Source: Candidatus Omnitrophota bacterium
GTDB taxonomy: Bacteria; Omnitrophota; Gorgyraeia; Zapsychrales; JAHFFX01
Direction of reading: 5' to 3'
Assembly (NCBI GenBank): GCA_023247725.1
Contig: JAHFFW010000016.1
Location: forward strand, 1 to 58,244
Length of the DNA: 58,244 bases
How positions within the stretch are numbered: position 1 is the stretch's first letter; the number at the start of each line of letters is the position of its first letter. The notes beneath the pieces are model-generated. The model did no database searches. It was given only the letters and a program-made list of their open reading frames with translations, and was not told the DNA's origin. The position numbers and the translations under genes are program-made. Shown in pieces: positions 16,306 through 35,534 of this stretch.

Positions 16306-17264
16306 GGTGTTTTCTCCGAACTCGCCGGGCCTGGGCTTACTCCTAAAGATTTGATAAAGGCAATGAGTTGCAGGATTTCTTCTTCCGATATCTGGTCTTT
16401 AAAGGTCGGCATGACATTCGCGTATCCAGCGACCAGTCTGCGTCCAGGATCCACAATCGATTCGCGAATATAGGTCTCATCGGCCACGATGGTGCGCCCG
16501 TCCGATAAATGCACTTTACCGCCGTATAGTCCATCAAAAATTGGAGAGGCGATAGTACTTCCTCGTTGGTGGCATTGCCAGCAGCCGTATTTCGCGATGA
16601 GCTGTTCTCCTTTGAGCGCCATGGGCTCCTTTTTTCCCCGATCAACCCACGATTCGTATTCGTCCAGAGTCATGGCGATGACTTTTCCCTGCATGAGCGA
16701 ATGCCAAAGCCCGCAGTATTCGGAACAAAAAATTTTGTATTCACCGGGTTGGTTGACTTGAAACCAGAGGTTCGTATAACGGTTGGGCAAGACATCCATC
16801 TTGGTCCGAAATGCTGGCACAAAAAAACTATGGATCACGTCCTGAGAAATGAGCGTCACTTGAATTGGAACTCCGATGGGGATGTGCAGTTCATTGATCT
16901 CGCGTTTGCCTTCCGGATGCTGGAACTTCCACATCCACTGTTTCGCCACACAGTAAATGGGGAGTGCCCCGGCGGGCACTTGCATCTGCTGAAAGTAAAT
17001 CTTGGCCCCCCAGAAGAAGATCACCAAGAAAACGATGAGGGGGACACCGATCCAGATCGCTTCGATGAGGCCGGTTTTTTCGATGACGACGTGGGAGACT
17101 TCATGTCCCGGCCGTCGACGGTATTTCACCGCAAAAAACAGCATCAAAAAAATAATCAATCCCGAAGTCAATACCGTCAAGAAGACCAGAAACCAATATA
17201 ATTGGTCCACCACACCGGACATCGTGGTCACCGGTCCGGCAATCCGGATCGCTTCATGGTGCAT
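16302..17264 (-). CDS. ctaC: Cytochrome c oxidase subunit II with fused cytochrome c
   Basis: DVIHSF and [12 protein letters not shown] (CuA), C-terminal CWQCH...MP; start reassigned to ATG 17264. Confidence 0.95.
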
Positions 17265-18081
17265 AGGCCCTCTCCTGTCTTCGCAGAAGATAAATGAGAA
17301 GGCCCACCAGAAAGACGGTGATCCCGGCTGCCAGCCGCAGCAGATTAAAAACGGCAAGGCTGTATCGGCCCATGTGCGGATTGTAGGCAAAGCAATACAT
17401 CAGGATTTGATCAGTAAAAGTTCCCATTTTTTTTTGGCGGGAATCAGCGAGCGCGAGCTTGATGTCGCGCGGCGGATATTCCAGGCCAAAAAGATACCGG
17501 CTGATTTTTCCATCGGGTGTTAAGACCATAAGAACGGTGGAATGAGCGTATTGCTGGTTTTCAGTTTTTTCATACGCAAATCCTGAGGCCTGGGCCAGGG
17601 CGCGGATCAAGGATTCCTCACCGGTTAAAAAATGAATTCCATTTTCCGAGCCGGGTTTATTGAGAAGGTCGGCCAATTGTTTTTTTCTTCCCTGCGCCTG
17701 GGAGCTTGTGTCTTTGGGATCGATACTCACCACCAGCAATTCATAATCTTTGCCTGGCCTCTCTTCGATAATTCGCAAGGACTGACCCAGGGCCTTCATA
17801 TTGAGCGGACAAAGCATGGGGCAATTGAAATAGACAAATGTCAAAAGCACGGGTTTGTCGCTAAAAATTTCCTTTAGTGCGATTGTTCGTCCGTTATCGT
17901 CGGTGAACGTTAACTCTAAGGGCAAGCGCTCACCCAAACGCTGCCGGACATCCATGGCCGGTAAATCGCTTTTCTTTTCTGCCCGAACTGCCGCGGGCAA
18001 AGCAGTTTGGCCCAATGCCAATAAACCCAACGAAATAAGAAGGACCATGATCCTGCGGCGAAATTTTTTTTCGTGCGTCAT
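17254..18081 (-). CDS. SCO1/SenC copper chaperone
   Basis: YFNCPMLC and YAHS motifs, C-terminal TM helix. Confidence 0.92.
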   Translation of the reverse strand: MTHEKKFRRRIMVLLISLGLLALGQTALPAAVRAEKKSDLPAMDVRQRLGERLPLELTFTDDNGRTIALKEIFSDKPVLLTFVYFNCPMLCPLNMKALGQSLRIIEERPGKDYELLVVSIDPKDTSSQAQGRKKQLADLLNKPGSENGIHFLTGEESLIRALAQASGFAYEKTENQQYAHSTVLMVLTPDGKISRYLFGLEYPPRDIKLALADSRQKKMGTFTDQILMYCFAYNPHMGRYSLAVFNLLRLAAGITVFLVGLLIYLLRRQERAYAP

Positions 18082-18455
18082 GGCTGTTCCTGATTTTTGG
18101 GTTCCGGCGGTTTCTCTAATTCATGGCTCTGCAAGAGGCGATCCATGGCCTCATCAATGGGGATGCGGGCCACATCATTATCCCGGTCGGACCAGCCGTA
18201 GGTATTGAGAATCATCTTCTCTTCCTTTCTTAGCTTTTGCAGATTTTCGGAAAAAGTGGATTCAAGAAGGGGCGCATTGGGTTTCGACTGGCTCGGGTTG
18301 GGTGATGGGTGGCGCGGCCTTTCTCTTTGGAATAAAACCAGCAGAAAAAAGGCACTCAATTGAACCAGCAGAAAGAACGCAGCCAATAGGCCCAACGTTT
18401 TTAAAATCATCGGGGTCGTGATGTTCTCTTTGTCTTTATCGCTAGTTGGGTTCAT
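18078..18455 (-). CDS. Small single-TM ACIII accessory subunit (ActG-like)
   Basis: One TM helix, LNTYGW.D....ARIPIDEAM motif, located between actF and SCO. Confidence 0.7.
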   Translation of the reverse strand: MNPTSDKDKENITTPMILKTLGLLAAFFLLVQLSAFFLLVLFQRERPRHPSPNPSQSKPNAPLLESTFSENLQKLRKEEKMILNTYGWSDRDNDVARIPIDEAMDRLLQSHELEKPPEPKNQEQP

Positions 18456-19548
18456 GACGCCAGGTTTTTCCATTCATTAGAATGATGAAATAAAGACTGA
18501 CCACCGACAAGGCCGCGGCCACATGGCCCAAACTCATTTGGGATAAAGTTCTGCCTAATGCGGGGAAAACGGTCCAAGCGATATCCATGCATCGCATCAC
18601 AATGACCCACAGGGCAATCCCGATCAGGGTTTGGGGATCCTTTTTGAAAGCCCTTCGCAGCAGCAATAAAAAGGGAATGAAAAAATGTCCGACGATGAGA
18701 GAACACGCCACGAATCCCCACCCTCCTTTGATTCGCGGAAGATACCAGTTGATTTCCTCTGGAAGGTTTCCCATCCAGATGATGAGAAACTGCGCAAAGG
18801 ACATATAAGCCCAGAGCATGACCATGACGAGGAGCAAGTTGCCCAGATCGCGGAAGACAAAGGCCTCCTCTGGCCGGGGCTGGGGATTTTCAAAAAAGAT
18901 GAACAATACAATTAGGAAACAATAACCCAACAGAACGCGGCCTTCGACGGACAGGATTCCGAACATGGTTGAATACCAATGATAGTCAATGCTCATCACC
19001 CAATCGATGGAGGCAAAGGTCCCGGAGAAAACATACAGAACGCCTAAGAGACCGGCCAAATTAAATCGTTGCGGACCAGAGAGCCAATAAAGACTTCCCA
19101 GCCATATTGCAAAATATAAAACCGTGCGCAGAAGAAAAAACGGTTGATTCAGATACAGACTTTTACTCGCCAGCATTTCTGGACTTACGTTCATCCATCC
19201 GTAAATCCGGTGCAGCCAAAAAAGATTGGGCAATCCCAAGACAAAGGCGATCGGCAATGACCAGGCCATCGCCACATAATATTTTTTAATGACCAGGCCC
19301 CAGGCCCCTCCCGTTAAGGTGTGGATGATCCAAATGCCCAGGGCGCCAATCGGAATGCCGACGACGAACAAAAATCCATAAAAATATCCTTCCACGAAAC
19401 TCTGGCGGTCGGTCATGAATTTCCAAAGACTGACAAGGATGGCTAAAGCAAAAGCAATCCATAGATTCTTAAGGACCCCTTGCCTTCTTTGCTCATCATA
19501 AGAGGTTTTCATCGACTCAAGAGGTTTTGGTTTCACCGACGGATTCAT
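18442..19548 (-). CDS. actF: Alternative complex III membrane subunit F
   Basis: About 10 TM helices; DWVMS....WYSTMFG, DLGNLL, QFLIIWMGNLPEE. Confidence 0.9.
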   Translation of the reverse strand: MNPSVKPKPLESMKTSYDEQRRQGVLKNLWIAFALAILVSLWKFMTDRQSFVEGYFYGFLFVVGIPIGALGIWIIHTLTGGAWGLVIKKYYVAMAWSLPIAFVLGLPNLFWLHRIYGWMNVSPEMLASKSLYLNQPFFLLRTVLYFAIWLGSLYWLSGPQRFNLAGLLGVLYVFSGTFASIDWVMSIDYHWYSTMFGILSVEGRVLLGYCFLIVLFIFFENPQPRPEEAFVFRDLGNLLLVMVMLWAYMSFAQFLIIWMGNLPEEINWYLPRIKGGWGFVACSLIVGHFFIPFLLLLRRAFKKDPQTLIGIALWVIVMRCMDIAWTVFPALGRTLSQMSLGHVAAALSVVSLYFIILMNGKTWRHEPN

Positions 19549-20192
19549 TGGGGGAGAGCTGGTTCTGGATTTTTTTTCGGTTCCACAAAGGCATTGGGAT
19601 CATCTTCACTTAATTTGTTCAGTTCTTTCTGGATATCCGGGGTGACCTGGTCGATCGGAACCTGCCGGCTCTGTTGCAGGGCCCGGATATAAGCGGCCAC
19701 GGCCCAGCGATCGTTTTCATCTAGCACATCGCGGTAGGGAGCCATCTTTCGACTGCCGTCGGTCATGATGCGAAAGAAGTACCCGACGGGCATTTGCCGC
19801 AAGCGCGCGATGTGAAATGACGGCGGTTGAGTAAACCCTCTTTGCACCACCATGCCATTGCCTTCTCCAGTCTGAGCGTGACAGACCGCGCAGTAAATAT
19901 TGAACCGCTCCCTTCCTCTTTCGAGCACCGCGCGATTGACTGGGATAGGGCAATAGGCAAGATATTTTCCGCTTTCCATCCCGGAAAAAAACGGCGAATC
20001 GCCTTTGAGGTGGCCCCGGGCCACGGTTCCGTTCACCAAAGGCCGGGCAGAACTCCCATCGGCAAAAAACGGATCCTCTTCATACGGTTTTAAACGGGAA
20101 TTATCCGCCATCTCATGCTGGCCGCAGGAGGTCAGGACAACGAGCATGAGAACCACCCACATCAACCGGCTTAAGGCATTCCATGGTTTCAT
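19545..20192 (-). CDS. actE: Alternative complex III monoheme cytochrome c lipoprotein
   Basis: Lipobox LTSC, CAVCH, DRWAVAAYIRALQ. Confidence 0.9.
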   Translation of the reverse strand: MKPWNALSRLMWVVLMLVVLTSCGQHEMADNSRLKPYEEDPFFADGSSARPLVNGTVARGHLKGDSPFFSGMESGKYLAYCPIPVNRAVLERGRERFNIYCAVCHAQTGEGNGMVVQRGFTQPPSFHIARLRQMPVGYFFRIMTDGSRKMAPYRDVLDENDRWAVAAYIRALQQSRQVPIDQVTPDIQKELNKLSEDDPNAFVEPKKNPEPALPQ

Positions 20193-20752
20193 TAATGTTC
20201 CACCCGGTTCATATCCGCAGCGTTCGTCTTTTTTAAGAATTCGCTCACTTCCTCTATATTAAACTTCGGATCATCGGCCATAATGCAGAGAAAAAAACTA
20301 TCCAAGCTCGCCCGGTCAAAGGTCGGGATATTAAAAACTGGATGATAAATTTCGGGAAGGCCGCAACGGGAAAGGAGTGTCACAAAACCCGTAATGGCGG
20401 CGAAAAGCACCGTCAGCTCAAAAGTGATAGGAATAAAAGCGGGCCAGCTATTGAAAGGCCGACCACCAATATTGAGTTTGTCATCAAAGACATTGGCATA
20501 AAATTGCATGAAGAACCCGGCTAAACATCCCGTAAGTCCGCCGAAAAAGACCGCCCAGGGCAGACGCCGGTCTTTGTGCCCCAGGATTTCAAATAACTCT
20601 TCGACGGGAAACGGCGAATAAGCCTCCATGCGGGTATAACCGTTACTTCTGGCGAGGCGGGCAGCCTCAACGAGTTGGTCTTTATCCGCATAACGGGCGG
20701 CCATCCCGAAGAATCCTGTTGGTTTTTGTGAAACCAAATTATTTGTGTTCAT
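20192..20752 (-). CDS. actD: Alternative complex III subunit D (DUF3341)
   Basis: EAYSPFPVE, NIGGRP..SWPAFIPITFELTVL. Confidence 0.92.
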   Translation of the reverse strand: MNTNNLVSQKPTGFFGMAARYADKDQLVEAARLARSNGYTRMEAYSPFPVEELFEILGHKDRRLPWAVFFGGLTGCLAGFFMQFYANVFDDKLNIGGRPFNSWPAFIPITFELTVLFAAITGFVTLLSRCGLPEIYHPVFNIPTFDRASLDSFFLCIMADDPKFNIEEVSEFLKKTNAADMNRVEH

Positions 20753-22082
20753 GAGTCAATAACTCTTTCACCTCAAAACTCGCGATCATAGGCAAGGTCC
20801 GCACAAAAATTAAAATCGCGACAAAAAAGAAGCCAATGGTTCCAAGATAAGTCGACCAGTCCCAGACCGTCGGATAATACATGGCCCAGGCCGAAGGCAT
20901 AAAGTCCCGATGCAGGCTAACGACGACAATGACAAACCGTTCCAGCCACATGCCAATATTAAAAATGATGGATAGGATGAATAAAATGACCGGATTTCTG
21001 CGGACCTGAGGAAACCATAGGATCTGAACCGCAATGACGTTGCACAGGATCAGCATCCAGTACATGATCCCGTACGGACCCGTGGTGACATTTTTGATGA
21101 GAAAATGTTCATACAAATTTCCGCTGTACCAGGCGATAAACATCTCCATCATGTAGCCGTAGCCCACAATCAATCCGGTCGTGAGCGTCACCTTTGCCAT
21201 GACATCCAGATGCGCTTCGGTAATGATCGATTCCAAATGATAAATTTTCCGTACCGGAATCATGAGGGTCAGGACCATCGCAAATCCGGAATAAATCGCT
21301 CCGGCGACAAAATACGGCGGGAAAATGGTGGTATGCCAGCCGGGAACAATCGAGGAGGCAAAATCGAAACTGACCACGGTATGGACGGAAACAACCAGCG
21401 GTGTCGAGATCCCCGCTAGCAAAAGGTAAAGCGTATTGAATTTCTCCCAGTGAACCGCAGCCCCGCGCCAACCCAACGAAAGAATTCCATAAATCCGTTT
21501 CTTCCAGTATGTTTGTGCCCGGTCGCGCGCCGAGGCCAAGTCCGGGAGCAATCCCGTATACCAAAATAATAAGGAAACCGTAAAATAGGTCGTGACCGCG
21601 AAGATATCCCACATGAGCGGGCTGCGGAATTGCGGCCACAAACCCATGGTATTGGGATACGGAACCATCCAGTAGAATCGCTGCGGCCGTCCCAAATGCA
21701 GGATGGGAAACATCCCGGCGCACATGACGGCAAAAAGCGTCATGGTTTCGGCAAATCGGTTGATGGCCGCGCGCCACGGTTGATGCAAGAGGAATAAAAA
21801 GGCCGAAATAAAAGTGCCGGCATGGCCAATCCCGATCCACCAGACAAAGTTGATGATGGCAAACCCCCAGCCAACGGGAATCCGGATGCCCCAAATTCCC
21901 ACGCCTTTAACGAAAAGCCAGAAGATGGAAATCTGTAAAACAATGAAAAGTGGAAAGGCAACGGCAAAGACAAAAAGCCACGGCCGGCGGAATCCCTTCT
22001 CGAGAGGAATTCCTATGACGCTCCGATCGATCGAGGCGTAATCCGGTTTTTCAGCGGTTATAAAATGCTCGTGTTTGTCCAT
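20739..22082 (-). CDS. actC: Alternative complex III subunit C (NrfD/PsrC family)
   Basis: NFVWWIGIGHAGT, HLGRP, SPLMWD, SVHTVVSFDFA, WHTTIFPPYFVAGA. Confidence 0.95.
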   Translation of the reverse strand: MDKHEHFITAEKPDYASIDRSVIGIPLEKGFRRPWLFVFAVAFPLFIVLQISIFWLFVKGVGIWGIRIPVGWGFAIINFVWWIGIGHAGTFISAFLFLLHQPWRAAINRFAETMTLFAVMCAGMFPILHLGRPQRFYWMVPYPNTMGLWPQFRSPLMWDIFAVTTYFTVSLLFWYTGLLPDLASARDRAQTYWKKRIYGILSLGWRGAAVHWEKFNTLYLLLAGISTPLVVSVHTVVSFDFASSIVPGWHTTIFPPYFVAGAIYSGFAMVLTLMIPVRKIYHLESIITEAHLDVMAKVTLTTGLIVGYGYMMEMFIAWYSGNLYEHFLIKNVTTGPYGIMYWMLILCNVIAVQILWFPQVRRNPVILFILSIIFNIGMWLERFVIVVVSLHRDFMPSAWAMYYPTVWDWSTYLGTIGFFFVAILIFVRTLPMIASFEVKELLTHEHK

Positions 22083-25049
22083 TTAAACCATCTTGGGATT
22101 AGGATTTTTAATTTTGGCCAAATAGGTTGTTCTCGGCCGGGTCCCCAAATCCGTCAAGATGCCGTAATGAAGATCATGCCCTTTCTTCTTCGAAACCTGA
22201 GATTGCGGATCGCGTATGTTGCCAAAGGTGATTGCCTGCGCCGGACAAACTTGCTGGCAGGCCGTGATGACCTCTCCATCGCGGATTTTCCGGTTTTCTT
22301 CTCGGGCTTCGATGCGTGCGTGGTTGATGCGTTGGACACAATAGGTGCACTTTTCCATGACGCCCCGGGTACGGACCGTGACATCGGGATTGCGGGCAAG
22401 CCGGATGAGATCCGGCTCTGCCTGGGTGTACGCATAAAAATTGAATCTGCGGACTTTATACGGGCAATTGTTGGAGCAATAGCGGGTGCCGATGCAGCGG
22501 TTATAGGTCATTTCATTCAAACCTTCTTGGCTGTGTGTTGTGGCCTCAACCGGACACATCAGTTCGCAGGGCGCGTTTTCACAATGCATGCAGGGCACGG
22601 GCTGATGATGCGTCTGCGGATTCTCTACGGGGCCTTCATAGTATCGGTCCACGCGGATCCAATGCATTTCCCGGCTGTTGATGACTTCACTTTTACCGAC
22701 GACGGGGATATTGTTTTCAACCTGGCAGGCCAAGGTACAAGCGTTACAGCCGATACACAGATTCAAATCAATGGCCATACCCCATTGGTATTCGTTTTCC
22801 AAATGCTCTTTAGGATGGTACAGCGTTTCTTCCTTTTCCGGAGAAGGGGAAACAGTCCGGGAGACAAAATCTGGCTGCGACTGATAAGTGGAAAGATCGG
22901 CCGCAATAACCAGGTCTCTCCCCTCCATGCTGCTGTGCTGTTGTGAGCTGGCGAGTTGGATCAATGTCCCAGTCTTTTTAACGGCAACGCCCTGTATTTC
23001 AAAAGGACTGACGGAATTTTGTATTTTGAATGCATCGAAGCCTAATCCGTTGCCGATAGTGCCGGCGGCTCGGCGGCCATACCCTAAATGAATCGTGATC
23101 ACCTGATTCGCCTGTCCGGGAAAGATCCAAATCGGGGCTTGGATTTTTTGATTATTTTTGGAGATTTCAATGACTTCGCCATTTGTCAAATTGGAAGATT
23201 GCGCGAACGTCGGAGAAATCAAGGCAACATTTTCCCAAGTCAGGCGGGTCAGTGGTTTGGGTAATTCCTGCAGCCAGCCGTTATTGGCAAACTGTCCATC
23301 CAGAATATGCGGGTCGGGACGAATGAGGAGAGTGAATGGTTCCGGGCCGACGGGGTGATCGTCGTTCACTTTAATCAATTTTGGAGCCGGTAGTGAAATA
23401 GCCGGCGATGCGCTTTGCTCCATGACTCCATCGTGCAAAGTTTTGTTCCAAAAATCAGGGAAGTCGGCTCTCGGGTTTTTTTCACTCCAATATCGTTGGA
23501 TCATTTCTAAGGATGACTCATTGCCCCGGTCAACAAAAAGGGCGCATAAATCATAGTCCGTTTTGCCATTGTATAACGGTTCAATCAAGGGCTGACGGAT
23601 GGTGACGGTTCCATCAAAGGCCTTGAGATCTCCCCATGCTTCCAGTTCTTGAGCGGACGGGATATGCCATTGAGATAACCCAGCGGTTTCATCCAGATAA
23701 AGCCCCATATGGACCCGAAACTCGGCTTTTTCGTACGCTTCATTAAATTGCAGGTCGGCGGGAGTTGCATAAACTGGATTGGAGTCAATGACAAATAAAT
23801 CCGTAACTTTCTGATCGTGAAGCTCCTTCGCCAGGGTTCGAATTGATTCTGTTCCGTTTTCAGAAGCAGGTTCATTAGAGGCAATATAATCAATGGTTTG
23901 ACCAACGTTCGCTAAAAGATGATTGATCTGGCCAACCATGATTTGAATGTCAACGGGTTGTTCAGCCCCCGCAATGAGTAAAGACTTTTTTGAGTGCTGT
24001 GCCAAATCATCGGCCATGGCTTCCACCCGGCGCTGGTTTTCCTTGGACAAGAGGTTATGCTGGGACGGTGAATCGTTTTGCAGAAGTTTCCAAAGCGACT
24101 TAAGGAATATTCGCATTTCGATCGGCGAAAAAATGAGCCGATGGTCGGCCATGGCACCGGTTAAGGTGGGGGTTGATTCGAGCGCGTATAAACGGTTCAT
24201 TTTTAAGTTTTGGGAATCGATCCGACGGCGTTGGCTGAATTCCCGTGAATAAGCCAGAGCGCCTGAGCCTTGCGCCAGAAAATCGCTTTCTATCGAAACA
24301 ATCACGTCGGCATTTTTGATCCGGAAAACCGGCTGCAAATCCTGGCCGTACATCTCAAACAAGGCCTGACGGGAGCAATCGCAATGGATGGGACTATACT
24401 GGTGCCATTTCGCAGAAGGGAATGTTTGAAGAATTTGTTCTCGTAGTGAGGCAAGCGTCGGAGAAATGATGGGTTTGGAAAGGAATCGTAGTCCCTCCCC
24501 TTTCCGCGCCCGCAGTTTGGGCATCCGGGCTGCCAAAGCGTCGGTGAATTGCTTCCAGGTGGCCGGTAAATTATTAAAGAGAATTCCCCGCGAGCGGTCA
24601 GGGTCATAAAGCTGATAAAGGACCGCTTGAGTGATGCAATCGGTAGCGCCCAGGCTGTCGGGATGATGAGGATTGCCTTCAATTTTTGTCGGGCGCCCCA
24701 TGTGGCTTTCCACCAGGACCCCGCGGGCAAATCCAGAGAACGAAATGGCTGTCGCGAAGTAAAGCGGCTTTCCCGGGATGATTCCTTCCTGCGACTTCAC
24801 ATAGGGGATAATTTTTTCCACGGATTTGCTGCATCCGGCCAGGGCCAGCATCATGATTTGCGCGCTCATGAGTTTTAAAAAGGAACGGCGGGTGATCTTT
24901 CCGTCCCAAAAACTTCCGGACTGGGGAAATTCGTGGCGCAGATAATCCTGGACTTGCGGATCATCGGCAGCTTCTTCTAAACTCCTCCAAAAAGTTTTGT
25001 CGTTAGTTCGGACCAGATTTTTGAGTTTTTCAATTTTGTCCATAGTCAT
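22083..25049 (-). CDS. actB: Alternative complex III subunit B (molybdopterin-oxidoreductase-like plus Fe-S)
   Basis: FWRSLEE leader, Tat motif TRRSFLK and lipobox LAGC; C-terminal CIGCNACTLAC, CMHCENAPC..C, CIGTRYCSNNCPY, CTYC...CQQVC. Confidence 0.95.
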   Translation of the reverse strand: MTMDKIEKLKNLVRTNDKTFWRSLEEAADDPQVQDYLRHEFPQSGSFWDGKITRRSFLKLMSAQIMMLALAGCSKSVEKIIPYVKSQEGIIPGKPLYFATAISFSGFARGVLVESHMGRPTKIEGNPHHPDSLGATDCITQAVLYQLYDPDRSRGILFNNLPATWKQFTDALAARMPKLRARKGEGLRFLSKPIISPTLASLREQILQTFPSAKWHQYSPIHCDCSRQALFEMYGQDLQPVFRIKNADVIVSIESDFLAQGSGALAYSREFSQRRRIDSQNLKMNRLYALESTPTLTGAMADHRLIFSPIEMRIFLKSLWKLLQNDSPSQHNLLSKENQRRVEAMADDLAQHSKKSLLIAGAEQPVDIQIMVGQINHLLANVGQTIDYIASNEPASENGTESIRTLAKELHDQKVTDLFVIDSNPVYATPADLQFNEAYEKAEFRVHMGLYLDETAGLSQWHIPSAQELEAWGDLKAFDGTVTIRQPLIEPLYNGKTDYDLCALFVDRGNESSLEMIQRYWSEKNPRADFPDFWNKTLHDGVMEQSASPAISLPAPKLIKVNDDHPVGPEPFTLLIRPDPHILDGQFANNGWLQELPKPLTRLTWENVALISPTFAQSSNLTNGEVIEISKNNQKIQAPIWIFPGQANQVITIHLGYGRRAAGTIGNGLGFDAFKIQNSVSPFEIQGVAVKKTGTLIQLASSQQHSSMEGRDLVIAADLSTYQSQPDFVSRTVSPSPEKEETLYHPKEHLENEYQWGMAIDLNLCIGCNACTLACQVENNIPVVGKSEVINSREMHWIRVDRYYEGPVENPQTHHQPVPCMHCENAPCELMCPVEATTHSQEGLNEMTYNRCIGTRYCSNNCPYKVRRFNFYAYTQAEPDLIRLARNPDVTVRTRGVMEKCTYCVQRINHARIEAREENRKIRDGEVITACQQVCPAQAITFGNIRDPQSQVSKKKGHDLHYGILTDLGTRPRTTYLAKIKNPNPKMV

Positions 25050-25058
25050 CAGATTAAT

Positions 25059-25712
25059 CTAGCGGTGACAGGCGGAACAATTGCGTATTTCTTTGACCCG
25101 TTTGGGATCGATGTTTGGGTCCCAAGGTTTATAACTCATTTCCGTCGGAGTCTTCGGGGGCTGCCTTTGATTATTTTGATGCAAGGCCACATAATGTCCG
25201 GGATGCTCATGACAACTCATACACCAGCCCATATAAAGGGTATTTTCTTTTCTCATCAAGGGCATGGACTCGACTTTGCCGTGACAAACCTGGCAGGCGA
25301 TTCCCTTTTGCACATGGATGCTGTGATCGAAATAGACAAAATCGGGCAGATTATGAACCCGATTCCAGACAATGGGCTTGCCGGTTCTATAGCTTTCTCT
25401 CACCGGCAAAAGCATAGGGGAATCCTTCCAGATTTCTTGATGGCATTTCATGCAGGTTTCGGTCGAAGGCATTCCGGCAAATGAACTTTTCTCAACGGAG
25501 GTGTGGCAAAACCGGCAATCAATCCCTAAGCCTTCCACGTGATGCTCATGACTAAAGGGAACGGGCTGAGCAAGGGGGATTCCGACACCAGTTTGGCTCG
25601 ATGACCATTGGTGCATAATCGCTGTGGTTATCCAACCGATCAGCAACAACAGGCCACCCACAATAATCCCGCGGAAAAAAGTATTATCGATGGGTTTGAA
25701 TATTTGCGCCAT
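25059..25712 (-). CDS. actA: Alternative complex III pentaheme cytochrome c
   Basis: Five CxxCH (CRFCH, CMKCH, CQVCH, CMSCH, CSACH); start reassigned to MAQIF at 25712. Confidence 0.95.
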   Translation of the reverse strand: MAQIFKPIDNTFFRGIIVGGLLLLIGWITTAIMHQWSSSQTGVGIPLAQPVPFSHEHHVEGLGIDCRFCHTSVEKSSFAGMPSTETCMKCHQEIWKDSPMLLPVRESYRTGKPIVWNRVHNLPDFVYFDHSIHVQKGIACQVCHGKVESMPLMRKENTLYMGWCMSCHEHPGHYVALHQNNQRQPPKTPTEMSYKPWDPNIDPKRVKEIRNCSACHR

Positions 25713-25864
25713 AAATTTTCGCGGGGGAGCTGCTTTTCGAAACTCGCGCAAGGCTTACCCGAAGGCCTTGGCTTAATGGAGGGAGGTTTTAAAACTATTC
25801 TGCTTCGCAAAAATAATAAGTTCGTTTAGTTTTGCTTCGCAGGAATATTCTCCCGAGCAGAATA

Positions 25865-28645: not shown

Positions 28646-28816
28646 TCAGCTTTGTTTTTTGCCGATGACGTAATAAAGAACCATGCCGATGAGCGGCATA
28701 AGGAGGATGACGATCACCCACACGAGCTTTTCGGTTGAATCTTTCTTGCTCTGTAAGACATCGGCCAATGCCATGATATCCAGAATAATAACAATGAGAC
28801 AGAGAATGAAATTCAT
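28646..28816 (-). CDS. Small membrane protein, PLDc N-terminal-like domain
   Basis: GAGGAGG RBS; manual translation MNFILCLIVIILDIMALADVLQSKKDSTEKLVWVIVILLMPLIGMVLYYVIGKKQS (56 aa, below the track cutoff). Confidence 0.85.
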   Translation of the reverse strand: MNFILCLIVIILDIMALADVLQSKKDSTEKLVWVIVILLMPLIGMVLYYVIGKKQS

Positions 28817-28896: not shown

Positions 28897-29469
28897 TTAT
28901 TCCTGAGCGTCCACCCGGGACAGAGAGGTTGAGCTCGGTTCAGTGAATGTGAAACTGCGGATTAACACCGCAAATAAATCTTTGTATTCCTCGAACCGGT
29001 TTCTGGTATTGACCGAAAAGCTGATCCGATAAAGCGCCTTATTTTTGATGACAAAATAATCCAAGATTTGCACATTGGGGTAGTGAATCGGATTGGCAAT
29101 GACGATTACCGCTTTTTGGCCGCCGACCCGCGATGGCCCAATTTTAAAATCCGGCTCATAATGGAAGTTGGCCTGCAAATTTTTGGGGCTAAGGTCTTCC
29201 CAAAGATATTGGCCTTGCGCGAACTTAGTGATCGTGACCGTCACAATATGACGTGGACGACCTTTGACCACCAACATCAGGCTTTCCGGCGAGATTTCCC
29301 TTTGCCAGTGAGGACTGCATTTGATCTGGAAGCCCAGATTTTTGTCAGTGCAGGTGGTCAAACGCGGTAAATGGGAAGCGGATGGCGCGGTGGATTCCTG
29401 GGCGGTCAAATTCTCTCCGGGACCCCAAAGCGTCGCGAGCAAAAATAAAAAAAAGAGGGTTCGTTTCAT
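28897..29469 (-). CDS. Exported hypothetical protein (PsbP-like pattern)
   Basis: Signal peptide MKRTLFFLFLLA; GFQIKCSPHW...FAVLIRSFTF; ATGA overlap with the upstream TIR gene. Confidence 0.6.
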   Translation of the reverse strand: MKRTLFFLFLLATLWGPGENLTAQESTAPSASHLPRLTTCTDKNLGFQIKCSPHWQREISPESLMLVVKGRPRHIVTVTITKFAQGQYLWEDLSPKNLQANFHYEPDFKIGPSRVGGQKAVIVIANPIHYPNVQILDYFVIKNKALYRISFSVNTRNRFEEYKDLFAVLIRSFTFTEPSSTSLSRVDAQE

Positions 29470-30269
29470 TTGTCCAGGATCAGATAACCGTTTGCCTTTA
29501 AACGCTCGTGCAAATCCCTTTCCCAACGGCCGGATTCATCCATGGGCGTATAGACGGCGTCATAAAACTTCGTCGGCAGGTCAAAATTCGGTTTTTCTTG
29601 ATAAAGAATAAATACCTGATTTCGCTGTAGTTTTCCCATCACATATCCCATTTCAAAGACGACGTTCGCCGTAGCCTTGAGCCGGGCATCCTTAGGGATA
29701 CCGTCTTTTCGGAAAGCCAACTCATCGGCGGACAAGATGACCACAGCGAATTGGAATTCTCCGACCTCGGCCAGCTTCTGTGCCAAGGATTTACCCTCAT
29801 TGTATTGGTCGAAGGAAAGGGTGGGTTTAAGCGACCAGCCTTTCAATTTTTGTAAAACCTTGGCGCACATCAATTCATTACGACCATTAATGACAAAGAC
29901 CTTCTTTCGTTCAACTTGTCTTGGCTCCGCGGGTGGAGTTGATGCGCCTTCGGTGGGGGATTGGACTTGTGACTCTGGAATTGACGTAACGGTAGCCAGA
30001 GGCATGATCGCAGGTTCGCTCGGCGACGATGCTGGCAGCGCTTTAGTCGAAGTATTTTCAGAAGGCTTGACCTCTCCTACAGCTAAAGCCCCGGCTACGG
30101 GTGACGACGAGTCGCCGGGGCTTGGAATGATTGGCGAGACTTCGCTCAATTTTGTTTGTTCCGTTTCCGGACCTTTTTCGTTAGAGGGTTCATTCAAAGA
30201 CCTTGTCTTTTTGAGTCGATCGAGGCGCGAGCGAAAAAAAATTAGAACGTTAAACCAGTTTATTGGCAT
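29466..30269 (-). CDS. TIR-like (PF10137-type) protein with Pro/Ser-rich N-terminus; catalytic Glu retained
   Basis: KKVFVINGRN, FAVVILSADE, KATANVVFEMGY.MGKL, DLPT. Confidence 0.85.
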   Translation of the reverse strand: MPINWFNVLIFFRSRLDRLKKTRSLNEPSNEKGPETEQTKLSEVSPIIPSPGDSSSPVAGALAVGEVKPSENTSTKALPASSPSEPAIMPLATVTSIPESQVQSPTEGASTPPAEPRQVERKKVFVINGRNELMCAKVLQKLKGWSLKPTLSFDQYNEGKSLAQKLAEVGEFQFAVVILSADELAFRKDGIPKDARLKATANVVFEMGYVMGKLQRNQVFILYQEKPNFDLPTKFYDAVYTPMDESGRWERDLHERLKANGYLILDK

Positions 30270-31671
30270 CGATCGTAAATCCGCAATTTTTTAAGGTGCG
30301 CAGAAGATCAAACTGCCAGCGACCGTGTTTGTCGCAGGGGGTGTACAGCACATCAAAATAATTCGTTGGTATCTCAAAATTTTTTTCTTCGGGATAAAGC
30401 ACGAAGACGCGATCGCGTCCCAGTTTCCCGATCAGGAATCCTAATTGAAAGATGACATTTTGCCTGGCCCTTTGCCGGACGCTTTCCGGTGATTGATCCC
30501 GGTGACGTCCTAAATCATCGCTTGATAAAAGGACAGCGGCAAAGGACACATACGGGTAATCTCGGAATTTTTGGACGAGAGTTTTGCCCTGGTTGTGACC
30601 GATATCGGAGAGAATGGGTTCGAGACCAATTTTTTGTAAGGCAAAAACCACCTGATCGCGCATGAGTGTATCATAGCCGTGGACCACGAATACCTGTTGC
30701 CGGACGGTTAAGCGGAAATCTTCCGGGCGGCCGGCTGGAGGAATCGCAGCTGGAATTTCTTGGGCGAGGGAAGACTTTTCCGGTGGGGCTTGGAATTCCG
30801 GTAGCGGCCAAGACGATCCGGTATCCGATGGAGCGATCGGTGCCGTTTCCTTTTTTTCTTGATTTGATTCCTCGCTTTTGGATTGGGCGATTTCTCCACT
30901 TTTGTCCTTCTCACGCACATCCTTGTAACCCGGAAGTAACATATCCGCGATTTCATCGAATTCCTCATCGTCGATGTCGTTGTCGGCCGAAGGAAGCTCT
31001 GACGGCTTTTTTATTGGAATCTCCAGCGGGATTTCTTCAGCAGAAGACTCGGCCTTTGCGTGTTGTTGTGAATCGCCGGCAGATTCAGGCTCCTGCACCG
31101 GTTGGGTTTCTTCTTCTACTTTGGCTTGGGAGATAAAGGTTGTTTCTTCGTCTCTATTGAGCGGTTGAGGCGGGATTTCTATTTCATCTAAGAGTTCCAA
31201 TTCTTCAGGTGTCGGTTCGGGGGTGGTTTCCGCTAAAGATTCGTCCCGGTGAGCGGAACTTGTCAAAGGGGGTTCGGGTTCGGGGCGATCGAAGGTTTTG
31301 TCTTCTTTATCCGTTTGCGGTTGAGAAGCGAATGGAGACAAATCCAGGGCTTGGTCCATCTCTTCGCGCAAGGCCTCGGGAAGAGACCCTAGAAAAGGAT
31401 CTTGCAGAACTGCGTTCAAAAGTTTTTTGAGATTGAGAATCCCTTGCTGCCAGCTGGAGCGGTAATCCTCTTCCGTCGAATAAAAGGAACCCGGCGTAAA
31501 ACGGATCCGCTGCAATTCATGCCGGTAATCGGACGACTCGCCAAAGATATCGCGGATGGTTCGATCGGCTTCGTGGCGAAATTCGTCCAGCCGGATCTTA
31601 TTGCGATAAGGCAATAGATCGACTTTCTGCAAAAGCCCCCAGATCATTCCCTGTTTTTTGAATTCCGTCAT
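30250..31671 (-). CDS. TIR-like (PF10137-type) protein with helical N-domain and long acidic linker; catalytic Glu replaced by Gln
   Basis: QVFVVHGYD, FAAVLLSSDD, RARQNVIFQLGFLIGKLGR; start reassigned to ATG 31671. Confidence 0.85.
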   Translation of the reverse strand: MTEFKKQGMIWGLLQKVDLLPYRNKIRLDEFRHEADRTIRDIFGESSDYRHELQRIRFTPGSFYSTEEDYRSSWQQGILNLKKLLNAVLQDPFLGSLPEALREEMDQALDLSPFASQPQTDKEDKTFDRPEPEPPLTSSAHRDESLAETTPEPTPEELELLDEIEIPPQPLNRDEETTFISQAKVEEETQPVQEPESAGDSQQHAKAESSAEEIPLEIPIKKPSELPSADNDIDDEEFDEIADMLLPGYKDVREKDKSGEIAQSKSEESNQEKKETAPIAPSDTGSSWPLPEFQAPPEKSSLAQEIPAAIPPAGRPEDFRLTVRQQVFVVHGYDTLMRDQVVFALQKIGLEPILSDIGHNQGKTLVQKFRDYPYVSFAAVLLSSDDLGRHRDQSPESVRQRARQNVIFQLGFLIGKLGRDRVFVLYPEEKNFEIPTNYFDVLYTPCDKHGRWQFDLLRTLKNCGFTIDANKLV

Positions 31672-31711
31672 GGCCGTGCTACATCCCGGATCGAAAGGAT
31701 CGTTCCGCAAA

Positions 31712-33007
31712 TTATAATAATTCCCCGCGAACGGCTTGTCCATCCAACGTTGTTAACCGGACGAGCTTCAGTTGATTCTGCAGGTTGATCGAATCTCTGG
31801 TGCGGATTTTAACGCGGGCGTAATGATCGGTAAATCCAGCCCAATCACCCAATTTTTTTTCCTCAAAAAGAACGGATTGGGTCGTCCCCAAGAGATTGTG
31901 GAGAAACTGCTGGCGTTTGAGAACACTCAGATCTCTTAAAATTCGGCTGCGTCGCCGAATTTCACTTTCCGCCACCGGATCAGGAAGAAGTCTGCTTTGC
32001 GCATACCTTCGCTCAGAATAACTGAAGACATGCAGATAGGATAAAGGAAGTTCTTCCAGCCCTTGCACGGTTGCGGCAAAATCCTCGCTGGTCTCGCCGG
32101 GAAAACCCACAATGCAATCCGTCCCCAGGCAGATTTCGGGAACGACCTTCTTGACATTCCCAATAAAGTCCTGAAATTCCTGAATTGAATATTTTCGCTT
32201 CATCTTCTTTAAAATGACGTCACTGCCGCTTTGCAGAGGAACATGCAAATAACGGCAGAGCTTGCTGCCTTGCGCCATTCGTTGAAACAATTCCCTCGGG
32301 ATCGTTGTCGGTTCAATCGAAGAAATTCTGATCCTGCATAATCCGTCAATTCGTTCAAGCGCCTCGATGACATCCATAATTTTTTTGTGTTCGTGATCGT
32401 AGGTGCCCAGATTGATGCCGGTTAAAACCAATTCCTTGTGGCCGGCCGCGACGAGCGCCTGGGCCTCCCAGAGGATGTCCGCGAACTCGCGGCTGCGGGC
32501 GCGGCCGCGCGCGTAAGGGATTTCGCAGAATGAACAGAAGAAATCACAGCCGTCTTGGATCTTCAAATTGGCGCGCGTGTGAGCGCGATCGATTCCGGCC
32601 GTGGGAATTCTAAAGGCCTTTCTCGGGATAGGCGGAACAATCACCTGAGTTTGAACGGGATTGGGCTCTGCCTCCACGATGGTTGCCAGGTCAAGTTTTT
32701 GCGCGTTACCGACGACCCAGCGAACATTGGCCCAATGGGCCAGTTGCTCCTTTTGTATCTGCGCCTGACAACCCACCAGCGCAATCTTTGCGCCGGGATT
32801 GCGCATGTTGATGCGCTGGACCAATCGCCGTGCGTCGGCATCGCCATTTTCGGTTACGGTACAGGTATTGATGACCACCACATCGGCCGGTTGATCAACA
32901 TTCACCACGCGATACCCTTTGGATTCAAAGGAGCGTTGAAGGACAGCGGTTTCGGCTTGGTTCAAACGGCAACCGAATGTGTAAAAGGCTACGGATTCAG
33001 GATGCAT
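31712..33007 (-). CDS. mtaB: tRNA t6A37 methylthiotransferase
   Basis: TFGCRLNQAET, INTCTVT, radical SAM CDFFCSFC, LHVFSYSER. Confidence 0.9.
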   Translation of the reverse strand: MHPESVAFYTFGCRLNQAETAVLQRSFESKGYRVVNVDQPADVVVINTCTVTENGDADARRLVQRINMRNPGAKIALVGCQAQIQKEQLAHWANVRWVVGNAQKLDLATIVEAEPNPVQTQVIVPPIPRKAFRIPTAGIDRAHTRANLKIQDGCDFFCSFCEIPYARGRARSREFADILWEAQALVAAGHKELVLTGINLGTYDHEHKKIMDVIEALERIDGLCRIRISSIEPTTIPRELFQRMAQGSKLCRYLHVPLQSGSDVILKKMKRKYSIQEFQDFIGNVKKVVPEICLGTDCIVGFPGETSEDFAATVQGLEELPLSYLHVFSYSERRYAQSRLLPDPVAESEIRRRSRILRDLSVLKRQQFLHNLLGTTQSVLFEEKKLGDWAGFTDHYARVKIRTRDSINLQNQLKLVRLTTLDGQAVRGELL

Positions 33008-33015
33008 GATTGAGG

Positions 33016-33759
33016 TTAAGGATTCGGCTCGTTACTTAAAAAATCGTCGAGGAAATTTCTTTTACTGTGGCGGAATAAGGATTGACCGGTCTCGGAACTG
33101 AAGTAATAGAGCATCCCCAGAAAAATAAAAGTGTGCAGCATTTCTAATTGGGTACTGAGATTCGGATGGTAACCATGCGAAACCTTAGCGGCCAGACCCA
33201 AGAGATCATTGATGTTTATTTGGCTTTGGGCGAGCAAGCCCTCCACTTTTTCACGATAAACGTAAACATAGGTTTGCCAGAAAAAGGAAATGCAGATGCT
33301 GAGATAAACAAACCATTTGACCCAGGGAAAAACAATCGTGAATCCGATTCCGGCCACAATAAGCCACATGCTTAAGATGAGATAAATATAAAGCCGCACC
33401 GGGTGGCTCATGAGAAAAAACACGGCTTCAAAATTTTTTAACCGTTCGATGGTCAAATAAATCTCATCTCGCCCCAGCTCAATATTTTCTTTGAGAATCT
33501 CATTTTGATTTAACCACTGGTCTTTGCTGATCCGGCCTTTGAAATAATCCTTGTCGAGTGTCCGACCAAGTCTTTGGGTGTTCACTTCGTATTCCAACAG
33601 CTTTCGGGAACGGAGTCCGTCCCAATCCGTGGGGCCGACGGAATTGACCACATCATTGAGATAAGTGATCCCGCTGATGAGAAGAATAATGCCGATGATG
33701 ATGGTTCCAATCGTCCCTTTTTGGATACTGCGGTTTAGCTTTAGATGGAGTGTTGCCAT
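33016..33759 (-). CDS. Hypothetical membrane protein
   Basis: About four TM segments; co-oriented within the operon. Confidence 0.65.
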   Translation of the reverse strand: MATLHLKLNRSIQKGTIGTIIIGIILLISGITYLNDVVNSVGPTDWDGLRSRKLLEYEVNTQRLGRTLDKDYFKGRISKDQWLNQNEILKENIELGRDEIYLTIERLKNFEAVFFLMSHPVRLYIYLILSMWLIVAGIGFTIVFPWVKWFVYLSICISFFWQTYVYVYREKVEGLLAQSQININDLLGLAAKVSHGYHPNLSTQLEMLHTFIFLGMLYYFSSETGQSLFRHSKRNFLDDFLSNEPNP

Positions 33760-34115
33760 AAGATTTTAAAGAACGTCAGCCACGCTAAGAGAAAGCAAAT
33801 CCCCCCGAAGGGAGTGATGGCGCCCAGCCATTTTTGGCCGGTCACAGCTAGCAAGTAAAGACTGCCGCAGAAAAGCGTAATGCCCAAAATCAGCAGAACT
33901 CCGACCCATTCGGTTTTGGGATTGTTGGAGATGGAGCTAAACCAGGCTAGGATCAAAAGTCCCTGGGCGTGTACCACGTGATAAAGCACGGCCGTTTTGT
34001 AAATATCCATGGAATATTCAGAGATCTTTCCTCTTAATGCATGCGAACCAAAAGCCCCCAGCCCCACGGCCAGGAACATGGCGAGCGTCCCCCATCTGGC
34101 CCAAACGATTCCCAT
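33741..34115 (-). CDS. DUF423 (YgdD/TMEM256) membrane protein
   Basis: AVGLGAFGSH, TAVLYH..HA, FCGSLY, GAITPFGG. Confidence 0.92.
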   Translation of the reverse strand: MGIVWARWGTLAMFLAVGLGAFGSHALRGKISEYSMDIYKTAVLYHVVHAQGLLILAWFSSISNNPKTEWVGVLLILGITLFCGSLYLLAVTGQKWLGAITPFGGICFLLAWLTFFKILWQHSI

Positions 34116-34123
34116 CGGTTTCC

Positions 34124-35404
34124 TTAACTGTTCGCGATATTTTTATTAAGCCATTCCAAGGCTTGATCAATACCGAGGAGAGTGGCTTTGATTCTCAGAT
34201 CAAAATGCCGGTTGTGGGTTCTTCCCTTGTGTGCATGTACTTTGATGAGTCGAACATTTTCTTCCAGATCCGGATACGAGAGTTTTTCTTCGACGTGAAT
34301 ATCGTGGCCTAAAAGAGCTTGAGGATCAAATTCAAATTCATGACGACGATAAGTCCCATCTTGGCAACGGGCCGAGCACATGATTTTGACCGGTCGAAGT
34401 AAAGGAAACGCGAGCGACCCCTCGAGCCCATTACGAATGACCACTGCCCCGGGGAATCCGGCGCGCTCCGCAATCGTGATCATTTTTTCAGTAAAAGGCG
34501 GATGAAATGCCGAGGTGAATAAAATTCGCGCACCCGCCGGATTCAAAAATCGTTCCAACGTGGCCAGAAAGGGCCGCTTAATGATTTGTCGCCGGAGGTT
34601 GACCCAATGGTCTAAAGGGCGAGACAAAAATGCCTGATGCAGAAAATATCCGAACGCGGGTTGAGTGTCCGTGATTTCCGTATTATTCAAGGGAAAATGA
34701 CCCTTGAGGGCCGAAGATAAATCCAAAAGATTGTATCCGGATTTGGGTCCGCTGTTTCGGCCCACGAGACTGATCACCCGGTATCGGTGTGCGATCAGAT
34801 GCTGGGCCATAAGCGGAGTCAACAAATACGATTGATCAACACCATCGAAGGGTTCTGCCAGTTGAATGATGGGAAATCCCGGCGGGGTTGGAATCCGAAA
34901 CCCCCTCTCGATGGTTTCTTGGATGCTCAGGCGCAGGCCCTCATATTCTTCGGAGGTTTCATACCGCACCCGCAAGGCCGTGGCCACCAAACCCCGTGCG
35001 CCATCGCCGGGAAGATCGGAAAATAAAAAGCGCCCCAGTTCCAAAGCCTTTGAGAGAGGAAGTTCTTTGCCATCAAGGAGCTCCTGGCAGATCATTTGAA
35101 TGGATTCTGGCACATCATGGGCGAGGAATTGGGCAAGATTTCGGGCACTCTGAAGAGTGCCGGCCGGCAGGGCCGATTCTAAAATTTTTTCTGGTGGTGT
35201 AATTCCTTTCAAAAATAACCCGGCGAAAAAAGCCCCTTTCTCAACTGGCAAAATTTTTTCCGTCTGTAAATCCGAAAGGATTGCCTGAGCAAGTTCTGGG
35301 CTTAAGGCTTTGCTCCCTCTTTTTCCCACACCGACGGTTTTGATTCCAAGCCGGATGGGCGTATCCTGCAAGGCGGTTGGAGCTAACTCTGAAATAGGGT
35401 TCAT
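34124..35404 (-). CDS. Anthranilate phosphoribosyltransferase-like (glycosyltransferase family 3, YbiB-like) protein
   Basis: IKTVGVGKRGSKAL, EPFDG, RQIIKRPFLATLE, FHPPF, GLEGS. Confidence 0.7.
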   Translation of the reverse strand: MNPISELAPTALQDTPIRLGIKTVGVGKRGSKALSPELAQAILSDLQTEKILPVEKGAFFAGLFLKGITPPEKILESALPAGTLQSARNLAQFLAHDVPESIQMICQELLDGKELPLSKALELGRFLFSDLPGDGARGLVATALRVRYETSEEYEGLRLSIQETIERGFRIPTPPGFPIIQLAEPFDGVDQSYLLTPLMAQHLIAHRYRVISLVGRNSGPKSGYNLLDLSSALKGHFPLNNTEITDTQPAFGYFLHQAFLSRPLDHWVNLRRQIIKRPFLATLERFLNPAGARILFTSAFHPPFTEKMITIAERAGFPGAVVIRNGLEGSLAFPLLRPVKIMCSARCQDGTYRRHEFEFDPQALLGHDIHVEEKLSYPDLEENVRLIKVHAHKGRTHNRHFDLRIKATLLGIDQALEWLNKNIANS

Positions 35405-35534
35405 GCATTTACCCAAAATGAGGATTCCATAAAAATCCTTTGTTATCAATGCCATTAGTATAACTTTCTAGGATTAAAAATCAACCCTTTCGACGCATGT
35501 TCCAATGCCAGGGCTTAGCATCCTTAGCAAATTC

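Follow-up and report, generated by a model that had tools for sequence, protein, structure and literature searches.

To our knowledge, nearly all bacterial TIR domains have been described as immune enzymes that consume nicotinamide adenine dinucleotide (NAD+), and non-enzymatic TIR adaptors are regarded as an animal specialty. In the TIR-STING protein SfSTING, R78 and N80 line the pocket, and E84, located on helix alphaC, is catalytic (PMC9402430). These three residues are described as acting in cis, while D110, contributed by the opposite dimer mate, is given as the only residue that acts in trans; the D110A substitution eliminates all NADase activity, and the dimer is built around alphaC as its core (PMC9402430). 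Another relative, PDC-S35 of the PADLOC library, is a single-gene phage defense candidate of ~260 to 290 amino acids, in which an N-terminal domain (N-domain) precedes a TIR domain of the Pfam family PF10137 (CAP12/Pycsar TIR). The PDC systems are presented in their source as candidates that were found by "guilt by embedding" and are themselves untested (10.1101/2024.01.29.577857). Here, we describe a computational analysis of two neighboring genes that encode TIR-like proteins A and B and are located on the minus strand of a 58,244-nucleotide contig of a Candidatus Omnitrophota bacterium (JAHFFW010000016.1; the whole contig is referred to as the window), immediately downstream of mtaB, the gene for the tRNA 2-methylthio-N6-threonylcarbamoyladenosine (ms2t6A) methylthiotransferase. 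An earlier note on this DNA had proposed that the two proteins complement each other's degenerate active sites.

We give somewhat better than even chances to the explanation that A and B are a domesticated pair of dimerizing TIR-like pseudoenzymes without NADase activity, which descended from a PDC-S35-type defense candidate and became fixed downstream of mtaB. A domesticated defense protein is preferred to a split enzyme because the old, vertically inherited lineage of these genes has lost the residues needed for NAD+ destruction. The ancestor would have been a defense-type protein that consisted of a four-helix bundle and a PF10137 TIR domain, as in PDC-S35, and its gene would have become fixed directly downstream of mtaB in one bacterial order. 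The lineage has lost the NAD+-cleaving site as defined in SfSTING, and the proteins would no longer be NADases. The TIR module probably hangs from a long, acidic, and disordered linker that is specific to the lineage, A and B may form both homo- and heterodimers through alphaC, and the proteins would act as dimerizing or oligomerizing scaffolds or as ligand-binding modules. A appears to be the best candidate for a ligand-binding, non-hydrolyzing form: it keeps the HG, Arg, and Asn of the pocket, and its replacements of Glu with Gln and of Asp with Asn resemble the pattern of a binder rather than that of a hydrolase.

Active-site residues, selection, and the predicted dimer

The presence of two neighboring genes that each end in a PF10137 TIR domain, which the earlier note had recognized from the letters, is confirmed by profile searches. 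The family matches A (positions 30250 to 31671, minus strand) at residues 350 to 471 of its full 497-amino-acid frame (E = 2.2e−22, 79.7 bits) and B (29466 to 30269, minus strand) at residues 123 to 243 (E = 1.7e−17, 64 bits), against a curated cut-off of 24.7 bits. These are the only PF10137 matches in the window's own genome, and the two TIR regions are 39% identical. Among defense models, PDC-S35 is the best PADLOC match for both proteins; it covers A in two stretches (E = 2.8e−52) and B in the TIR part only (E = 1.3e−30). The TIR-like domain of A (30253 to 30708) was modeled by AlphaFold2 with a mean predicted local distance difference test (pLDDT) of 91.9. In Foldseek searches with this model, TIR-STING structures 9lmq and 7un8 rank at the top (E = 1.7e−7 to 3.5e−5), followed by the TIR domains of SPARTA and MyD88, while N-glycosidases, such as MilB, and nucleoside deoxyribosyltransferases occupy ranks 28 to 48.

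A profile of the TIR part (A1) also finds the solved Cap12 TIR-STING proteins, and we mapped the SfSTING residues through this profile. The mapping is validated by the fact that a single offset places SfSTING R78, N80, E84, and D110 on R, N, E, and D. The TIR-like domain of B spans 29469 to 29924. The equivalents of R78, N80, E84, and D110 are R82, N84, Q88, and N116 in A and T85, N87, E91, and K119 in B. Thus, A has both pocket residues but lacks the catalytic Glu, B has the Glu but Thr in place of the pocket Arg, and the trans Asp is absent from both. The Gln codon of A (CAA, 30445 to 30447) and the Glu codon of B (GAA, 29652 to 29654) were correctly identified in the earlier note, as were the motifs, which read VVHGYD, SSDDLG, and RARQNVIFQLG in A and VINGRN, SADELA, and KATANVVFEMG in B. 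At the D110 position, the codons are AAT (30361 to 30363) in A and AAG (29568 to 29570) in B. Because the D110 equivalent is Asn in one protein and Lys in the other, neither protomer can supply the missing part. A is almost certainly not a NADase.

The degeneracy is not limited to the window. Not one of the 52 mtaB-linked domains carries all four SfSTING residues, compared to 7 of 13 copies that are located elsewhere in the same genomes and 2 of 7 copies whose context is truncated where the contig ends; in canonical copies at other loci of these genomes, all motifs are intact. In the Glu column, the mtaB-linked domains have H (15 domains), E (14), D (7), K (4), Q (3), A (2), G (2), L (1), I (1), and S (1), and no residue exceeds 18 of 52 in any of the four active-site columns. 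In contrast, positions of the fold and of alphaC are near-invariant: P114 and W131 are found in all 52 domains, G90 in 51, F87 in 50, D64 and L61 in 48 each, and G97 and F111 in 47 each. Ratios of nonsynonymous to synonymous substitution rates (dN/dS) range from 0.06 to 0.28 in six orthologue pairs that have Lys or His in place of the Glu; the other six of the 12 pairs scored were saturated in dS and gave no ratio. The lineage is under purifying selection and retains both the TIR fold and the surface of alphaC (GxxxG) that mediates dimerization.

This selection bears on the explanation that A and B are decaying, functionless remnants of a defense gene, which we regard as the most improbable of all considered here. 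All catalytic motifs are indeed degenerate, losses within the order are frequent, and fragments exist, among them a 63-amino-acid remnant of a B-type copy in metagenome loci L106 and L109 and a gene after mtaB in one genome (G009) that encodes the N-domain alone. However, the reading frames are intact, the dN/dS values are low, residues of the fold and of the interface hardly vary across four families, and both the N-domain and the TIR domain fold confidently in models.

In family f9 of the order, the mtaB-linked protein is a TIR-like domain alone, of ~145 to 220 amino acids (L022, 5157 to 5666, and 14 further f9 loci, such as L043, L050 to L057, and L059). These proteins have a conserved His at the catalytic-Glu column, usually an Asp at the R78 column, the motif RADQxVVFHLGYWIGKLGR, and dN/dS values of 0.06 to 0.08. 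The His/Asp change may have created a new dyad, or it may be structural only.

A two-chain model of the TIR domains of A and B passes, with an ipSAE (interaction score from predicted aligned errors) of 0.84 against 0.00 for the best control. A value of 0.84 is reached by 116 of 157 solved complexes and by 2 of 215 mismatched pairs, although these calibration counts hold only roughly because custom alignments were used. At least 86% of the contacts are shared between runs, and the pLDDT of the partner is at least 80. The modeled interface is two-fold symmetric, with the Gly residues of alphaC at its center, and both chains contribute their DD, RxxQN, Q/E-LG, and PT-x segments to it. Since SfSTING dimers have been solved, the pass may reflect memory of, or likeness to, known structures. 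The model supports binding of the A TIR domain to that of B and implies no preference for the heteromer over homodimers; to this extent, the heteromer suggested in the earlier note holds up, but its preferential assembly does not follow.

The model is also part of the case for an obligate heterodimeric NADase, in which B would provide the catalytic Glu and A would provide the HG, DD, and RARQNV that are no longer present in B. The predicted interface contains motif residues from both chains, and the site of SfSTING is reported to be completed across the dimer (PMC9402430). Nevertheless, we consider such an enzyme very unlikely. The one residue that would have to act in trans corresponds to D110, which is replaced by Asn in A and by Lys in B, while R78 and N80 are assigned to the protomer's own pocket (PMC9402430), and this Arg is missing in B. 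The complementary split site proposed in the earlier note finds no support in these residues or in the lineage-wide loss of the complete set.

Paralogues, pairs, and linkage to mtaB

A phylogenetic tree separates the copies of family f1, to which the copies in the window belong, into two paralogue types, alpha and beta. The alpha type includes A, the first copy of G002, the single copies of G003 and G007, and the second copies of G005 and G006. The beta type, with support of 89/84, includes B, the second copy of G002, the single copy of G004, and the first copies of G005 and G006. Pairs are present in only four of the eight f1 genomes, and their order is alpha-beta in G000 and G002 but beta-alpha in G005, G006, and a metagenome locus (L110). 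In the five intact pairs, the Glu column reads Q/E, E/D, E/E, D/E, and E/E, and the Glu-bearing paralogue switches between genomes; of the single copies in G003, G007, and G004, two have D and one has E. The asymmetry on which the earlier proposal turned is consequently not conserved in relatives.

These counts also decide what the pairs can say for a heterodimeric NADase. Exactly one Glu is present in three of five pairs, as the hypothesis would have it, but this is the frequency expected by chance because about half of the f1 copies carry the Glu. In three of the five pairs (G000, G005, and L110), the N-domain is missing from one copy, which speaks for the same hypothesis. On the other hand, an obligate heterodimer is at odds with the single-copy genomes and with the decayed beta copy in L106 and L109. 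At positions 5034 to 5225 of these loci, between mtaB and the alpha-type gene, an open reading frame (ORF) of 63 amino acids has a C-terminal match (77 bits) to the TIR profile only, and looks like a decayed beta paralogue.

The Gln of A is private. Among 12 distinct alpha sequences, Gln is found in A only, whereas Glu is present in nine and Asp in two. The sisters of A in the tree (support 100/95), which are the first copy of G002 and P0002, both have Glu, and P0002 is 65% identical to A over the TIR part. The letters of the Gln-codon stretch are the same in contigs of two samples from one groundwater study (X1 and X2). Contig X2 spans 30367 to 31387 with no differences, and X1 may be the source of the window itself. 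Because of this identity, an assembly error in one sample is unlikely, and, of the two possibilities in the earlier note, a private mutation or a read error, the former is borne out. We infer that the Q/E contrast between A and B reflects relaxed constraint on a defunct site and not complementation. In our preferred reading, A and B are a pair that arose by recent duplication, became partly subfunctionalized, and belongs to an old mtaB-coupled TIR-like lineage. In the unrooted tree, the f1 alpha clade is joined by canonical defense-type sequences (support 99/98), and because of this placement both a split of alpha and beta before the divergence of the families and a slower evolution of alpha fit.

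We used A as a query against 41 related genomes, followed by the A1 profile against 168 genomes of the order, and fetched every match. A TIR-like match is present in 63 of the 168 genomes, and in 50 of these 63 the gene follows mtaB on the same strand. The linkage holds in 7 of 7 genomes of f1, 18 of 19 of f9, 11 of 12 of f12, and 14 of 22 of f14. In 45 of the 52 linked cases mtaB is directly upstream, with a gap of −76 to +233 nucleotides and often a 4-nucleotide overlap. The junction is kept where the other neighbors differ (G023 and G018), and the same arrangement occurs in seven metagenome contigs. In the tree, mtaB-linked sequences group by taxonomic family (support of 100/98 for f14, 99/94 for f12, 90/81 for f9, and 89/84 for f1-beta). 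The TIR-like gene is inherited vertically with mtaB across four families of the order. Hence, of the synteny contemplated in the earlier note, the linkage to mtaB is retained and the pair with its order is not; the domestication that the note had raised as a possibility agrees with this inheritance.

Outside the order, PF10137 gives weak matches in 4 genomes of other orders (G049, G077, G111, and G118) in a class-level sample of 101, and the lineage profile has two matches outside the order in a phylum-level sample of 251 genomes, 21 of which are from the order. We did not find mtaB in the flanks of these out-of-order matches, and the stronger phylum-level match (G431) is of the canonical type. 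Thus, the mtaB-linked lineage was not found outside the order in either sample.

A few loci deviate from the common arrangement. In three f12 genomes (G221, G222, and G223; loci L076, L078, and L073), the TIR-like gene begins 426 to 1,194 nucleotides downstream of mtaB without abutting it, so another gene or remnant may intervene. In L064 (1489 to 3441; G216), an f12-type TIR-like domain ends an open frame of at least 650 amino acids (757 in the genome search), whose first 500 residues match no protein of the window; the locus is too short to see upstream of it. One f1 genome (G001, 90% complete) has no TIR-like match. A locus from the contig scan with A (L032) was rejected as a chance peptide match, since it contains no TIR gene, and P0002 was not found in that genome.

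The distribution is relevant to the possibility that A and B are still an anti-phage abortive-infection pair, in which A (with the N-domain and without the Glu) would be the sensor and B (with the Glu and without the N-domain) the executor, activated by oligomerization like paired TIR receptors of plants. The plant RRS1/RPS4 pair offers a precedent, with a sensor TIR that lacks the Glu and an executor that has it (PMC13732033). The best library matches of A and B are the PDC-S35 defense candidates, the N-domain family combines with several effector-type domains, the distribution within the order is patchy, and the A:B model passes. We nonetheless judge an active defense pair unlikely. B has neither the Arg nor the trans Asp, and A cannot supply the latter; there are no defense neighbors; and the gene descends vertically with mtaB, which is not the mobility of island-type genes. 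Moreover, most of the lineage lacks the Glu and yet is under purifying selection, and the PDC systems to which the resemblance points are candidates only.

Alternatively, the proteins could have acquired a new role tied to MtaB and might bind NAD+, by-products of S-adenosylmethionine, or tRNA as a subunit for regulation or nucleotide handling. The stop/start overlap or near-abutment with mtaB is kept across four families despite changing neighbors, A retains its pocket residues and has amides in place of both acidic ones, and the fold is related to the N-glycosidases and nucleoside deoxyribosyltransferases found by Foldseek. We assign this role a small chance of being right, since adjacency alone is weak evidence of a functional link. 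No mtaB::TIR fusion was found among the loci examined, most genomes of the order, all of which presumably have mtaB, do without the gene, and the pocket residues are not conserved across the lineage. A more elaborate and rather improbable version would make the pair a catalytically dead, dimerizing nucleotide sensor, domesticated long ago from a defense TIR NADase and co-translated with MtaB, with A as a substrate trap and the linker as a scaffold or condensate former. Through this sensor, tRNA modification or the neighboring exported proteins would respond to the status of NAD+ or nucleotides or to infection.

Several observations weigh against a domesticated pair of pseudoenzymes. The gene is absent from 105 of the 168 genomes of the order, and patchy distributions are typical of accessory or defense genes. 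TIR active sites are plastic, and our definition of the site rests on one solved relative. With 14 of the 52 linked domains carrying Glu and 7 carrying Asp, some members could keep a weak or altered activity, and B itself retains both Glu and Asn. The one-sided loss of the N-domain fits a functional partnership, and the position of motif residues of both chains together in the predicted interface is compatible with a composite site.

If the domestication of A and B into pseudoenzymes is nevertheless correct, the lineage would be a bacterial example of an immune gene turned pseudoenzyme, and would serve as a natural experiment that distinguishes TIR residues required for assembly from those required for catalysis. 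The locus also shows that complementary-looking paralogues can arise simply through relaxed constraint. Our literature search found no link of TIR domains with Omnitrophota, none of TIR-like proteins with MtaB, and no occurrence of the name PDC-S35; judged by titles and the openings of abstracts, none of five of the seven papers that mention PF10137 appears to concern the mtaB-linked lineage.

Domain organization and surroundings of the locus

The first ~100 residues of A (31360 to 31671) form four helices in the AlphaFold2 model (mean pLDDT of 91.6). Pfam searches at E values up to 10 recovered no family for this N-domain or for the N-terminal segment of B, and neither protein has a second Pfam domain. 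Fold searches of the PDB with the N-domain returned generic helical bundles only (best Foldseek E = 0.12), and its best VIA Z score of 9.1 is within the helical-bundle background. A profile of the N-domain finds 438 representative proteins at E ≤ 0.001. In the 146 that were scanned for partner domains, it is combined with PF10137 (71 proteins), Hypoth_Ymh (4), TIR_2 (3), a DpnII/MboI-type nuclease (3), EAD7 (2), GNAT (1), or DUF4062 (1), and the remainder are short or without a recognized family. Free combination with effector-type domains is typical of conflict systems, and, by its partners, the N-domain behaves like a common sensor or adaptor module of such systems. The proteins in which it precedes Hypoth_Ymh, DpnII/MboI, GNAT, EAD7, or DUF4062 are P0157, P0216, P0228, P0254, P0173, P0182, P0190, P0206, P0208, and P0251. 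In G009, a gene downstream of mtaB (L023, 5572 to 6132) encodes a 186-amino-acid protein that consists of the N-domain alone and has no TIR part.

Between the bundle and the TIR domain, A has an acidic, Pro-rich linker of low complexity (30709 to 31362; 217 to 218 amino acids) with 16 to 17% Glu, 13% Pro, and a net charge of −36 or −37. In B, the N-terminal segment is Ser/Pro-rich and 118 amino acids long if translation starts at ATG 30269. Both low-complexity segments noticed earlier are thus real, whereas the lengths then given, about 240 and 90 amino acids, need correction. The only tandem repeats in the linkers are two trivial short arrays. Across the mtaB-linked lineage, the linker between bundle and TIR domain ranges from 51 to 264 amino acids and is mostly acidic and Pro/Ser-rich, compared to 4 to 7 amino acids in canonical proteins.

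The genes on the minus strand follow the order mtaB (31712 to 33007), A, B, and a gene for an exported protein (28897 to 29469); after a hairpin, a PKD-repeat protein follows. The assignment of mtaB, which agrees with the earlier note, rests on a TIGR01579 score of 401.5 bits (cut-off, 357) and on UPF0004 and Radical_SAM domains. A is part of an ORF of 497 amino acids that is open from ATG 31743 (30250 to 31743), and its likely start is ATG 31671, which agrees with the N termini of orthologues. The ORF of B encodes 267 amino acids (29466 to 30269). The overlap of A and B that had been reported amounts to 20 nucleotides and holds only with the start of B at ATG 30269; this start is uncertain because TTG 30197, TTG 30149, and ATG 30005 are in-frame alternatives. 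The coupling of B to the exported protein stands, with the stop of B and the ATG of the next gene sharing the ATGA at 29466 to 29469. That protein has a signal peptide (MKRTLFFLF...) and no Pfam match. A homologue of it is encoded downstream of the TIR-like gene in 13 cases, eight in f1 and five in f12. Its Atlas model resembles PsbP-type clusters (template modeling score of 0.67), which is a lead only. A terminator-like hairpin 3' of its gene (28681 to 28701, minus strand), found by a consensus scan only, may mark the end of the operon. A sigma-70-like match (TGGACA, 17 nucleotides, TATTAT; 31714 to 31742, minus strand) is located inside the 3' end of mtaB, ~40 nucleotides upstream of ATG 31671; it is a consensus match only, and the best of the region with 10 of 12 positions. 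If this predicted promoter is used, A and B might also be transcribed separately.

In f1, the conserved block consists of genes for a YbiB-like protein, DUF423, and a membrane protein, followed by mtaB, the TIR-like gene or genes, the exported protein, and the PKD protein. Upstream of mtaB in the window, the minus strand encodes a YbiB/TrpD-like protein of glycosyltransferase family 3 (34124 to 35455; weak matches only), a DUF423 membrane protein (33741 to 34115), and a 247-amino-acid membrane protein without a family (33016 to 33759). This three-gene block (33016 to 35455) is kept in f1 and partly in f3 and f9. Farther downstream, a respiratory cluster (14066 to 25751, minus strand) contains genes for alternative complex III, SCO1/SenC, and cytochrome oxidase subunits I to III, the alternative complex III genes being those for ActD, an NrfD-like subunit, a 988-amino-acid Fe-S subunit, and multiheme cytochromes. 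The ~30 kb around the locus hold genes for alternative complex III and cytochrome oxidase, along with those for Dus, a disulfide oxidoreductase, an ABC transporter, and glutathione synthesis. Consistent with the earlier note, we found no cyclase, STING, cyclic-nucleotide (cNMP)-binding, or ThsA gene among the 23 flanking ORFs of at least 150 amino acids (14 to 47 kb). PADLOC gives no ThsA match among these 23 ORFs and the three locus proteins, and its matches in the flanking ORFs are only weak, generic P-loop ones (an ABC-transporter ATPase and a ParA/NUBPL-type protein).

Comparison with described systems

SfSTING/Cap12 (PDB 7un8 and 9lmq) shares PF10137 and the order of motifs with A and B and is their best match in sequence and fold among solved structures; the predicted A:B dimer is centered on alphaC, like the intradimer interface described for SfSTING (PMC9402430). 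Unlike SfSTING, A and B are not fused to STING or to another nucleotide-sensor domain, no cyclase is encoded nearby, and they score 31 and 23 bits against the NCBIfam Cap12 model, whose cut-off is 450. They also differ in the site itself, at E84 and D110 in A and at R78 and D110 in B. The locus lacks both the fused sensor domain and the operon-encoded cyclase of the Cap12 effectors of CBASS (cyclic-oligonucleotide-based antiphage signaling system) and of the Pycsar effector PycTIR, and Thoeris, which pairs a ThsB-type TIR protein with ThsA, differs in that no ThsA is near A and B. PDC-S35 is closer, with the same four-helix-bundle N-domain as A. Nevertheless, A has a linker of 217 amino acids where PDC-S35 has 4 to 7, B has no N-domain, the catalytic sets of A and B are incomplete, and the two genes reside in a conserved mtaB operon and not in a defense context.

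Two eukaryotic systems, the nearest published analogies, resemble the pair in other respects. Like A and B, Arabidopsis RRS1 and RPS4 are reported as adjacent genes for associating TIR proteins, one of which lacks the Glu, so that only the other can be an enzyme (PMC13732033). However, they belong to another TIR clade, are NLR (nucleotide-binding leucine-rich repeat) receptors, and associate through AE/BE interfaces; the site of RPS4 is complete and that of B is not, and the division into Glu-bearing and Glu-less partners is conserved in the plant pairs but not in the lineage of A and B. TirB and TirD of Dictyostelium differ from A and B in being eukaryotic, in keeping the catalytic Glu, and in having no link to mtaB. 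As in our explanation of A and B, they are domesticated relatives of the CAP12/Pycsar TIRs: they are described as TIR proteins of the PF10137 clade that were acquired from bacteria, and are reported to purify as dimers and to show no NAD+ processing (10.64898/2026.04.30.722052).

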